Source: Escherichia coli (lineage in GTDB: Bacteria; Pseudomonadota; Gammaproteobacteria; Enterobacterales; Enterobacteriaceae). Taken from it: a DNA stretch of 23,432 bases. How positions within the stretch are numbered: the first letter of the stretch is position 1; each line of letters starts with the position of its first letter. The stretch lies in assembly GCF_003334785.1 (NCBI RefSeq), contig NZ_QOWV01000031.1; one strand, 5' to 3'. Position numbers: made by a program. Of the stretch, positions 1 through 3,000 are shown piece after piece.

Positions 1-3000
1 TGATGGAAATGGAAGCCACGCAAGCACCTTAAAATCACCATCATACACTAAATCAGTAAGTTGGCAGCATTACCGAAGAGTTCGTGCAATTTCCGGCGGA
101 GAAAATTGAGGCCGTTTGTCATGCCATTGCCGCTCACAGTTTCAGCGCGCAAATCGCCCCCTTAACAACGGAAGCTAAAATCGTCCAGGATGCGGATCGG
201 CTGGAAGCCCTGGGGGCGATTGGCCTGGCGCGCGTATTTGCCGTTTCAGGGGCATTGGGCTTGGCGCTGTTTGATGGCGAAGATCCGTTCGCACAGCATC
301 GCCCGCTTGATGATAAACGCTACGCGCTGGATCATTTCCAGACAAAGTTACTGAAATTACCGCAAACCATGCAAACCGCAAGAGGCAAGCAGCTGGCACA
401 GCACAACGCGCAATTTTTAGTCGAGTTTATGGCGAAGCTCGGTGCCGAACTGGCGGGGGAGAATGAAGGTATCGATCACAAGGTGATAGATGCGTTTTCA
501 CCTGCTGGCTGAGCGCGTGGCCCTAAACGGCAGTAATTATGTTAACCTGTCGGCCATCTCAGATGGCCGGTTAAATCTATGCAGGAAAATATATCAGTAA
601 CCGATTCATACAGCACCGGGAATGCCGCACAGGCAATGCTGGAGAAACTGCTGCAAATTTATGATGTTAAAACGCTGGTGGCGCAGCTTAATGGTGTGGG
701 TGAGAATCACTGGAGCGCGGCAATTTTAAAACGTGCGCTGGCGAATGACTCGGCATGGCACCGTTTAAGTGAGAAAGAGTTCGCCCATCTGCAAACGTTG
801 TTACCCAAACCACCGGCACATCATCCGCATTATGCGTTTCGCTTTATCGATCTATTTGCCGGAATTGGCGGCATCCGTCGCGGTTTTGAATCGATTGGCG
901 GACAGTGCGTGTTTACCAGCGAATGGAACAAACATGCGGTACGCACTTATAAAGCCAATCATTATTGCGACCCGGCGACGCATCATTTTAATGAAGATAT
1001 CCGCGACATCACCCTCAGCCATAAAGAAGGCGTGAGTGATGAGGCGGCGGCGGAACATATTCGTCAACACATTCCTGAACACGATGTTTTACTGGCCGGT
1101 TTCCCTTGTCAGCCATTTTCGCTGGCTGGCGTATCGAAAAAGAACTCGCTCGGGCGGGCGCACGGTTTTGCCTGCGATACTCAGGGCACGCTGTTCTTTG
1201 ATGTGGTGCGCATTATCGACGCGCGTCGTCCGGCGATGTTTGTGCTCGAAAACGTCAAAAACCTGAAAAGCCACGACCAGGGTAAAACGTTCCGCATCAT
1301 CATGCAGACGCTGGACGAACTGGGCTATGACGTGGCTGATGCAGAAGATAATGGGCCGGACGATCCGAAAATCATCGATGGTAAACATTTTCTGCCGCAG
1401 CACCGTGAACGCATCGTGCTGGTGGGTTTTCGTCGCGATCTTAACCTGAAAGCCGATTTTACTCTGCGTGATATCAGCGGATGTTTCCCTGCGCAGCGAG
1501 TGACGCTGGCGCAGCTGCTGGACCCGATGGTCGAGGCGAAATATATCCTGACGCCGGTACTGTGGAAGTACCTCTATCGATATGCGAAAAAACATCAGGC
1601 GCGCGGTAACGGCTTCGGTTATGGAATGGTTTATCCGAACAATCCGCAAAGCGTCACCCGTACGCTGTCTGCGCGTTATTACAAAGATGGCGCGGAAATT
1701 TTAATCGATCGCGGATGGGATATGGCCACGGGTGAAAAAGACTTTGACGATCCGCTGAATCAGCAACATCGTCCACGTCGGTTAACGCCTCGGGAATGCG
1801 CGCGCTTAATGGGTTTTGAAGCGCCGGGAGAAGCGAAATTCCGCATTCCGGTTTCGGACACTCAGGCCTATCGCCAGTTCGGTAACTCGGTGGTCGTGCC
1901 GGTCTTTGCCGCGGTGGCAAAACTGCTTGAGCCAAAAATCAAACAGGCGGTGGCGTTGCGTCAGCAAGAGGCACAACATGGCCGATGTTCACGATAAGGC
2001 CACACGCAGCAAAAATATGCGCGCGATTGCCACGCGTGATACGGCGATTGAGAAGCGCCTCGCCAGTTTGTTAACCGGGCAGGGACTGGCGTTTCGCGTT
2101 CAGGACGCCAGTCTGCCCGGACGCCCGGATTTTGTCGTTGATGAATATCGCTGCGTGATATTTACCCATGGCTGCTTCTGGCATCATCATCACTGCTATC
2201 TGTTTAAAGTGCCTGCGACTCGAACCGAGTTCTGGCTGGAGAAGATAGGTAAAAATGTTGAGCGCGATCGCCGCGATATCAGTCGCTTGCAGGAACTCGG
2301 CTGGCGCGTATTGATTGTCTGGGAGTGCGCGTTACGTGGGCGCGAGAAGCTGACGGATGAAGCGCTTAGCGAGCGTCTGGAAGAGTGGATCTGCGGCGAA
2401 GGTGCCAGCGCGCAGATCGACACGCAGGGGATTCATTTACTCGCTTGATGCGTCCTGAATAACTGGCGCAACTACGGGTTTTGCCGGAAAGAGATATTTT
2501 CCCAACGTGACCAGCACCACCGCGAAGACAATTACGCCGAGCGCCAGCCATTCAATCTTCGAAAGCGTCTCTCCACCCAGTCCCGTACCCAGCAAGACCG
2601 CGACCACCGGGTTAACGTAGGCGTAGCTGGTGGCGAGAGCCGGACTGACGTTGCGGATTAAATACATATAAGCGTTGATGGCGATAATCGAACCAAACAG
2701 CGCCAGATAGCCGACCGCAAGGAAGCCTGAAAGGGAAGGGAGCGCCGTCAGTTTTTCACCCGCAATCATCGACGCGATCATTAACACCACGCCTGCCGCC
2801 AGCATCTCAATCGCACCCGCCATCATCCCTACAGGTAAGGTAATGCGCGAGCCATAAACCGAGCCAAACGCCCAGCTAATCGAGCCGATTAAAATCAGAA
2901 TCGCGCCCCACGGATTGCCGCTTAAATTTCCACCGCTATTGAGCATAATGATTCCGGCAAGCCCAATGGCGATACCCACCCATTCCAGTTTGCGCGTTTT

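Follow-up and report, generated by a model that had tools for sequence, protein, structure and literature searches.

The window, by which we mean the whole 23.4-kb (23,432-nt) stretch of Escherichia coli DNA that was analysed, carries the truncated yedJ gene followed on the same strand by dcm, and in the 66-nt spacer between them a hairpin begins 39 nt past the yedJ stop codon (Table 1). The ATG at 579 is the dcm start in the RefSeq annotation, no in-frame start codon lies between the upstream TAA (543-545) and this ATG, and the encoded protein matches NCBIfam NF007772 across residues 1-469. SMRT-Cappable-seq has assigned yedR (drpB), yedJ, dcm and vsr to a single operon (10.1101/262964). In the literature searched we found no description of a dcm leader hairpin or of a dcm promoter, and the supplements of SMRT-Cappable-seq, ROSE and Mendoza-Vargas 2009 yielded no dcm or yedJ entry.

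Table 1. Features of the yedJ-dcm region, in coordinates of the window
Feature	Position	Strand	Basis or remark
yedJ, 3' part, HD-domain phosphohydrolase, IS1-truncated	84..512	+	stop 66 nt upstream of the dcm ATG
Predicted extended -10 of dcm, TATGTTAACCT	538..548	+	conservation; matches TRTGnTAnnnT, hexamer TAACCT at 543-548
Short ORF ATG...TAA, 11 codons, enclosing the hairpin	539..574	+	rejected as a coupling uORF
CCUGU, predicted to pair with GCAGG (581-585)	546..550	+	RNA folding
Hairpin/palindrome upstream of dcm	551..569	+	sequence read, repeat search, RNA folding
Hairpin, 5' arm CGGCCATC	551..558		
Hairpin, loop TCA	559..561		
Hairpin, 3' arm GATGGCCG	562..569		
Predicted transcription start	555..556	+	inferred from the -10 position, 7-8 nt past the hexamer; within the 5' arm
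CCGGTTAA, second conserved block, degenerate weak SD (GGU 569-571)	567..574	+	conservation, position
dcm CDS, 472 aa	579..1997	+	N-terminal DNA_meth_N domain (aa 19-75) and C5-methylase domain

A sequence-only reading of this DNA had reported a perfect 8-bp hairpin directly upstream of dcm, and direct reading of the sequence, a repeat search and RNA folding all confirm it. Positions 551-581 read cggccatc, tca, gatggccg, gttaaatct (570-578) and ATG (579-581). At the DNA level this is a 19-bp perfect palindrome of the form 9+1+9 centred on C560, the repeat search returning arms of 9 nt each (551-559 and 561-569) that are 100% complementary with 1 nt between them. As RNA, the 8-bp stem contains six GC pairs and folds with -12.6 kcal/mol alone and with -14.2 kcal/mol once a U550-G570 pair is added; it occupies positions -28 to -10 relative to the dcm start and ends nine nt before the ATG. 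The folding check that had been suggested, on the RNA from -60 to +30 around the dcm start, gave -24.8 kcal/mol (z = -2.33 vs shuffles). Anywhere in the 23.4-kb window such a stem is unremarkable: 6 distinct perfect stems of 8 bp or more occur in it vs a shuffle mean of 2.8 hits (0.56 for those with at least 6 GC pairs), and 2 palindromes of 9 bp vs 0.46 expected. Inside the yedJ-dcm spacer it is remarkable, on an expected count of ~0.002 that is a post hoc figure. The hairpin is single-copy, with a median of 1 place per E. coli genome and, even at 3 mismatches, one site in the whole window, and an Rfam 15 covariance-model scan of positions 1-3500 (E up to 10) gave no match at the hairpin and one chance-level match away from it (E = 2.7).

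An outer inverted repeat, TTAACC (542-547) and GGTTAA (569-574), surrounds the hairpin with its dyad 2 nt off the hairpin dyad; it is absent in Enterobacter, which has GTAATC, and is probably a coincidence.

Within E. coli the element is nearly uniform, 4909 of the 5368 matching genomes being identical across 543-572, and divergent Escherichia lineages also carry the stem, which has survived a divergence of 25-34% at 4-fold sites between lineages. The sequence-only reading had taken absence of the hairpin from other dcm loci as an argument against a role in dcm translation, and such absence was found in the sampled genera beyond Escherichia: all sampled Citrobacter, Enterobacter, Lelliottia, Leclercia, Huaxiibacter and Pseudenterobacter loci keep the yedJ-dcm synteny and the sequence blocks that flank the hairpin, and lack the stem. 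At the same place the leaders of Enterobacter, Lelliottia and Leclercia are pyrimidine-rich and essentially unstructured (MFE 0 to -2.7 kcal/mol), indicating that the Escherichia stem is the derived state. No covariation or compensatory change in the stem was seen across orthologous leaders, RNAalifold on the aligned leaders returned no consensus structure, and cross-genus pairing at the stem positions was 47% vs 46% in a shuffled control. The two lineage-fixed changes inside 551-569 are both stem-weakening and both uncompensated. G553A, which takes the stem from -14.2 to -7.0 kcal/mol, was found in all three genomes inspected (two of them O157:H7) among the 454 with one mismatch, and G562T, carried by E. 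albertii and divergent lineages, brings the stem to -11.5 kcal/mol. Positions 551-566 show 0-1 substitutions in 16 within Escherichia, vs ~4-5 expected from 4-fold sites. As this low rate is matched in Citrobacter and Enterobacter, both of which are without the stem, the constraint is not hairpin-specific, and purifying selection on the hairpin as such was rejected. There is no sign of selection for structure, and the stem is restricted to Escherichia.

What is conserved beyond the genus lies on either side of the hairpin, which fills a variable 16-nt gap separating two conserved blocks. The upstream block reads TRTGnTAAYCT, and in 28 sequences from several genera T538, T540, G541, T543, A544, C547 and T548 are invariant, a set that includes the equivalents of T-17, T-15, G-14, T-12, A-11 and T-7 of an extended -10 element. 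In 68 of 79 loci of the Dcm/EcoRII family, the true EcoRII methylase gene included, the core pattern TGnTAnnnT precedes the start codon by 25-35 nt, the control density being 0.014 expected per 11-nt interval. No -35 element was found upstream of it, TAACCT agrees with TATAAT at 3 of 6 positions, and a simple promoter consensus scan did not flag it. A purine stands at 555 or 556 in all aligned genera. Because the 5' arm of the hairpin contains the start predicted from this -10, which corresponds to about 2,032,340-2,032,341 on the K-12 minus strand, dcm-proximal mRNA would lack the hairpin. Set beside EcoRII-type systems, in which a strong SD and a palindromic operator flank this promoter, the chromosomal dcm clade has lost the former and most of the latter.

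Reg-Seq coordinates were mapped onto the window via rseX, the yedJ RACE start and the genome match. The presumed dcm start of that study, 2032352, on which its mutated region is centred, corresponds to position 544, the paper giving no basis for its "0", and in a dcm+ strain a repressor site was called at -15 to -5 (window about 529-539), along with H-NS, the palindrome at 551-569 not being called as a site (PMC7567609). The feature labelled "RNAP" at index 149 coincides with the dcm ATG, where the mutated region ends on its 3' side (PMC7567609), and we used it as evidence neither way.

In the downstream block C568, G569, G570, T571 and A574 are invariant, G569 being also the last base of the stem. 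This block takes the position of GGAGG in EcoRII-type relatives, and for this reason we read it as a degenerate, weak SD. The earlier remark that dcm has no obvious SD holds, as the best anti-SD duplex in -20 to -1 has an energy of -3.8 kcal/mol, at the 30th percentile among random stretches, compared with a median of -5.1 kcal/mol among the window's long ORFs. Of the GGU triplet only G569 belongs to the main stem, whose last position is -10, and the AUG lies outside it, covered solely by a predicted auxiliary helix between CCUGU and GCAGG that would lengthen the hairpin into a bulged helix over codon 2 and the last base of the AUG. This helix requires a transcript whose 5' end lies upstream of 546, and its two partners are conserved but invariant, leaving it without covariation evidence. 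The predicted cost of opening -15 to +13 is 9.8-14.4 kcal/mol for RNA with the hairpin and 7.2-7.9 kcal/mol for RNA starting at 555 or 556; the hairpin raises it by 2-7 kcal/mol. Given this difference an effect on dcm initiation is physically plausible. The suggestion of the sequence-only reading that the hairpin modulates dcm initiation has thereby stood in part: it agrees with the location at the RBS position, the weak SD and the higher predicted opening cost, and it is opposed by the absence of the hairpin in other genera, the lack of covariation and the predicted start inside the 5' arm.

We propose that a GC-rich stem-loop, palindromic in the DNA, may have arisen in Escherichia within the poorly conserved 16-nt stretch between promoter and RBS block. 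Transcripts from the proximal promoter, with a start at ~555-556, would begin inside the 5' arm and carry an unstructured leader of 23-24 nt, whereas the full hairpin would be confined to read-through RNA made from the drpB(yedR)-yedJ promoter further upstream, with the drpB start at 2,033,449 in K-12. On such RNA the hairpin and the CCUGU:GCAGG helix would partly mask the weak RBS and the start codon, so that translation of Dcm from the polycistronic RNA would be damped and Dcm would be made mainly from the proximal promoter. We favour this explanation tentatively, at somewhat less than even probability, and the start position, any effect on translation and the size of that effect are its model-based parts. 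Since the stem is weakened in natural variants, any such effect is probably small, and the hairpin is at most a minor local modulator and in itself a minor, genus-restricted feature. Against the proposal count the missing signs of selection for structure, the limited match of TAACCT to the consensus, the different start presumed by Reg-Seq, which called no site on the palindrome, and a gap in opening energy of no more than a few kcal/mol. The arrangement resembles RBS-masking stem-loops in that a stable stem ends nine nt before the AUG and overlaps the first G of the sole SD-like triplet, in that the predicted auxiliary helix covers the AUG, and in that initiation should be sensitive to structure because the dcm SD is weak. 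It differs from them in that the dcm stem shows neither conservation nor covariation beyond one genus, that the SD and AUG lie outside the main stem, and that the promoter-proximal transcript is probably without the 5' arm.

A less probable but still credible account is that the stem is a neutral by-product of the two conserved blocks and has no function of its own. Five of the 8 pairs would already have been present in the blocks, with TCGaCCAT, homologous to TCACCCAT downstream of the EcoRII-type -10, on the 5' side and TGGCCGG, from the RBS block, on the 3' side; the stem would then have been completed in the Escherichia ancestor by three substitutions or by a single quasi-palindrome template switch. 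In keeping with this, the outgroups have CGACCAT... together with ...TTGGCCGG or TCGGCCGG, the weakening variants became fixed in their lineages without compensation, and genera without a stem show the same sequence constraint. The palindrome is moreover perfect to its 1-nt centre, which is beyond the need of an RNA hairpin, and templated mutation by quasipalindrome template switching is known to yield perfect palindromes. Against it, all inferred changes raise complementarity, and for three independent changes the probability is ~(1/3)^3 = 0.04, which hints at selection or at templating; the stem has also been kept across the divergent Escherichia lineages. It is unlikely, and less probable than the neutral account, that the palindrome is instead a DNA operator, in which the 9+1+9 repeat over the predicted start would be the target of a dimeric repressor. 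This repressor could be Dcm itself, acting through DNA_meth_N. Residues 19-75 of Dcm match PF18284 (E = 4.8e-19) and its N-terminus is 42% identical to that of M.EcoRII; M.SsoII, M.Ecl18kI and M.EcoRII repress their own promoters, so that autoregulation is documented for this class of methylase (PMC12707154, PMC3978073, PMC3695355). The 15-bp SsoII/Ecl18kI site AGGACAAATTGTCCT is an odd-length inverted repeat directly after the methylase promoter, the M.EcoRII promoter region is comparable, a large palindrome surrounds the homologous -10 in EcoRII-type loci, and the dcm palindrome, which starts 3 nt past the predicted -10 hexamer, has the same geometry beside a gene whose product carries the N-terminal regulatory (HTH) domain. 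The likeness does not extend to sequence, as the palindrome is unlike AGGACAAATTGTCCT and also unlike the CTGGGTCAA...GACCCA arms found in EcoRII-type loci. Nor does it extend to distribution: Citrobacter, Enterobacter and other genera with the same domain are without the palindrome, and the Citrobacter domain hardly differs from that of Dcm across the putative helix-turn-helix. In each of the three inspected one-mismatch genomes G553A destroys the symmetry, the Reg-Seq repressor site lies off the palindrome, and the dcm product, unlike the methylases of the SsoII, Ecl18kI and EcoRII systems, is an orphan that has no restriction enzyme to be balanced against.

The remaining alternatives concern the RNA around the hairpin. 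An intercistronic 3'-end barrier, which we consider very improbable, would have the stem stop 3'-to-5' exonucleases after cleavage or Rho-dependent termination, stabilising drpB-yedJ RNA and uncoupling its level from that of dcm-vsr. Protective intercistronic hairpins such as REP elements typically have this position and form, and here too a stable GC-rich perfect stem without a U-tract stands in the spacer soon after a stop codon; yet, unlike REP/BIME-type repeats, the dcm hairpin is single-copy and belongs to no repeat family, and other genera with the same operon lack it. The short ORF that encloses the hairpin was weighed as a translational-coupling uORF whose ribosomes would melt the hairpin, stop 4 nt before the dcm ATG and reinitiate. 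In about 30 of the 38 sequences scanned the ORF opens with ATG or GTG at -40 and closes in frame with TAA or TGA at -7 to -5, and one Leclercia locus stays in frame despite a 1-nt insertion. Premature in-frame stops in 5 of the 38 (37 of them from the dcm clade), the loss of the TAA stop in K-12 (T572G), invariant nucleotides that fall on third codon positions and fit the -10 pattern instead, and an SD energy of -2.3 kcal/mol, that is, no SD, led us to reject this uORF as highly improbable; with a start at ~555 its start codon would in addition lie outside the proximal-promoter transcript. Least likely of all, to the point that we regard it as scarcely tenable, is an intrinsic terminator or a terminator remnant of yedJ, the other role that the sequence-only reading had offered. 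The hairpin shares with Rho-independent terminators a GC-rich stem soon after the yedJ stop codon, but the sequence 3' of the stem is GTTAAATCT and the tail GUUAAAUCU has no U-run, a terminator scan called nothing at the hairpin on either strand, and the long-read operon spanning yedR to vsr (10.1101/262964) contradicts it, transcription reading through.

The level of Dcm sets the extent of CCWGG methylation and, via vsr, the T:G repair load, and the control of dcm expression has so far been poorly described. If the hairpin matters, it would account for the insulation of Dcm synthesis from the drpB-yedJ promoter in Escherichia. We give a small chance, lower than that of the operator by itself, to the palindrome being both an Escherichia-specific operator on the proximal promoter, for Dcm acting via its EcoRII/SsoII-type N-terminal domain or for another repressor, and a silencer of read-through translation at the RNA level; if true, one element would control both routes to Dcm, and it would form an autoregulatory circuit of a kind not previously described for any orphan "housekeeping" cytosine methylase. 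The family-wide conserved promoter motif is a more useful product of the analysis than the hairpin, as it predicts a testable transcription start for dcm.

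The perfect 8-bp stem that a sequence-only reading had seen upstream of dcm is present as described, ending 9 nt before the ATG, and a repeat search showed that at the DNA level the stem is part of a 9+1+9 palindrome, CGGCCATCT-C-AGATGGCCG, complementary up to a single central nucleotide. The minimum free energy (MFE) of the stem is -12.6 kcal/mol (-14.2 with a U-G extension), and RNA folding of -60..+30 at the dcm start gave -24.8 kcal/mol (z = -2.33). The window holds 6 distinct perfect stems of 8 bp or more, versus a shuffle mean of 2.8 matches (0.56 for GC-rich ones), so such stems are not rare, and what stands out here is where the stem lies, not that it exists. 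The Shine-Dalgarno (SD) sequence of dcm, described earlier as not obvious, is indeed weak: its -3.8 kcal/mol ranks at the 30th percentile among random windows, and the median for the long ORFs of the window is -5.1 kcal/mol. Elsewhere, an intergenic gap holds a perfect 12-bp stem at 4724-4750, ACCAGGCCGGAT-CAC-ATCCGGCCTGGT; its core, GCCGGAT/ATCCGGC, is REP-like, the arms contain two Dcm sites, CCAGG and CCTGG, and a T-run is lacking.

Coordinates of the features at the dcm locus
Feature	Position	Remark
IS1 end	1-73	
Truncated yedJ	84-512	
yedJ-dcm spacer		66 nt
Hairpin 5' arm	551-558	CGGCCATC
Hairpin loop		TCA
Hairpin 3' arm	562-569	GATGGCCG
dcm	579-1997	
vsr	from 1978	overlaps the dcm 3' end

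The region was found in 5368 of 5426 complete E. coli genomes, identical over 543-572 in 4909 of the 5368 and with one mismatch in 454 further genomes; the hairpin site is single-copy and nearly fixed in the species. Three of these 454 were inspected (two O157:H7 strains among them), and all three have G553A, by which a G-C pair becomes A.C and the local MFE weakens to -7.0 kcal/mol from -14.2. In E. albertii and in two divergent lineages of Escherichia the loop-closing pair is opened by G562T (-11.5 kcal/mol). Both changes are uncompensated. A scan of 100,044 species genomes yielded 80 dcm-family loci. Citrobacter, Enterobacter, Lelliottia, Leclercia, Huaxiibacter and Pseudenterobacter have the MQEN... 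N-terminus and yedJ-dcm synteny in common; across this clade the spacer aligns gap-free but the stem is missing. The local MFE at the homologous place is 0 to -2.7 kcal/mol in the Enterobacter-like genera, and some species of the C. freundii complex form a different, weaker hairpin (-7 to -8 kcal/mol). In a 28-sequence alignment the eight pairs were formed in 47% of cells versus 46% in column shuffles, RNAalifold predicted no consensus structure, Rfam gave no match for the hairpin and literature searches did not turn up a published account of it. A general dcm regulatory hairpin, which by the terms of the sequence-only reading should recur at other dcm loci, is refuted by its lack there.

The alignment revealed two conserved blocks at a fixed spacing of 16 variable nt, the gap that the Escherichia stem fills. 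Block 1 (538-548), T-R-T-G-n-T-A-n-n-C-T, is invariant at the equivalents of T-17, T-15, G-14, T-12, A-11 and T-7 of an extended -10 promoter and varies at the positions of least importance in such a promoter. Of 79 Dcm/EcoRII-family loci (L003-L082 and L087), 68 have the motif TGnTAnnnT 25-35 nt ahead of the start codon, most often at 30 nt, against a control density of 0.014 expected per 11-nt window. Among its carriers are relatives in Klebsiella, Kosakonia, Pantoea, Erwinia, Edwardsiella and Cellvibrio, as well as the genuine EcoRII methylase gene of an IncN plasmid (L087), recognised from the 404-aa restriction gene convergent with it. The wider family strongly supports the reading of block 1 as a putative extended -10 promoter, and the motif spacing predicts a leader of ~22-24 nt throughout the family. 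An 11-codon upstream ORF enclosing the hairpin (ATG/GTG at 539, TAA at 572) was rejected: five loci carry premature in-frame stops, the invariant bases sit on third codon positions, an SD is lacking and K-12 itself has lost the stop (TAA to GAA). This substitution, T572G (CCGGTGAAATCT; L001:1631), also found in some other strains, extends the complementarity to the 16S 3' end (GGUGA) and may, as a natural variant, raise dcm translation in K-12.

With the -10 hexamer at 543-548, initiation is predicted at ~555-556, within the 5' arm and at a purine in every genus of the alignment. The leader of the proximal mRNA would thus be unstructured, 23-24 nt long and unable to form the stem, and the complete hairpin would be limited to RNA entering from yedJ. 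Such RNA exists, as SMRT-Cappable-seq places yedR, yedJ, dcm and vsr in one operon (10.1101/262964), and since the stem also has no U-tract, the proposed terminator is rejected. In read-through RNA the stem is predicted to stack on a CCUGU(546-550):GCAGG(581-585) helix covering the G of the AUG and codon 2. As opening -15..+13 costs 9.8-14.4 kcal/mol with the hairpin versus 7.2-7.9 for RNA starting at 555/556, modest damping of dcm translation from the polycistronic RNA would be the most likely effect; we infer both the start position and this effect. The window begins with the terminal ~73 nt of an IS1, 100% identical to the IS1 of many E. coli (median of 10 copies per genome), which leaves the C-terminal 142 codons of yedJ. 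Read-through from the drpB (yedR)/yedJ promoter into dcm is probably interrupted in this strain, consistent with dcm having its own promoter.

The palindrome could alternatively act as a DNA operator, since M.SsoII, M.Ecl18kI and M.EcoRII use the N-terminal region to repress their own promoters, the SsoII/Ecl18kI site being an odd-length inverted repeat directly after the methylase promoter (PMC12707154, PMC3978073, PMC3695355). Dcm has such a DNA_meth_N domain (PF18284, aa 19-75), 42% identical to the M.EcoRII N-terminus, and the Escherichia palindrome shares that geometry; yet it is missing from Citrobacter despite a near-identical domain, is unlike known sites in sequence and is broken in symmetry by G553A, and in a dcm+ strain Reg-Seq (PMC7567609) placed a repressor site at -15..-5 of its own frame, window ~529-539, not at the palindrome. 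We consider this operator unlikely. The Reg-Seq site (K-12 GGCTGTAATTA) maps immediately 5' of the extended -10, at the position of the EcoRII-type left operator arm, with weak sequence similarity. EcoRII-type genes carry a large near-perfect palindrome centred on the -10, CTGGGTCAAatgaGTGATAnnnnTTCACccatnnGACCCA (L087 2529-2572), likewise in L042, L048, L051, L053, L057, L058, L061, L064 and L071-L074, in the last four almost perfect across ~45 bp; this palindrome is a likely operator for the known M.EcoRII autorepression. There TGnTAnnnT lies inside the palindrome CTGGGTCAAatgaGTGATAcattTTCACccataaGACCCA, followed by a strong GGAGG, whereas in the clade of chromosomal dcm genes the outer arms and strong SD have decayed or been lost; block 2, CCGGTTAA (567-574), occupies the position of the GGAGG, and the stem 5' arm TCGGCCAT aligns in register with EcoRII TCACCCAT. 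On the minus strand, 588-598 (dcm codons 4-7, CTGATATATTTTCC) resembles an extended -10 directed antisense towards yedJ and contains TGATATATTTTC, which also occurs in the -10 core of certain EcoRII-type promoters (e.g. L057); conservation of the hexamer does not extend to other genera, though TCAGT is invariant at the nucleotide level.

A neutral origin of the stem is nearly as likely as a functional one. The Escherichia lineages compared diverge at 25-34% of 4-fold sites but at 0-1 of the 19 positions of 551-569. The homologous 16 nt, however, evolve comparably slowly in the stemless Citrobacter and Enterobacter, and the constraint is a property of the promoter-proximal leader, not of structure. 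As outgroups carry CGACCAT... and ...TGGCCGG, 5 of the 8 pairs, about three substitutions would have completed the stem. Each of these adds pairing, and the palindrome has no mismatch up to its centre, in line with either selection or template-switch mutation, a known mechanism at quasi-palindromes.

Regulation of dcm initiation by the hairpin, as first proposed, is plausible only for read-through transcripts and finds no comparative support; the hairpin is a genus-restricted stem-loop, probably of small effect. The more informative outcome is the putative family-wide extended -10 promoter that it overlaps.
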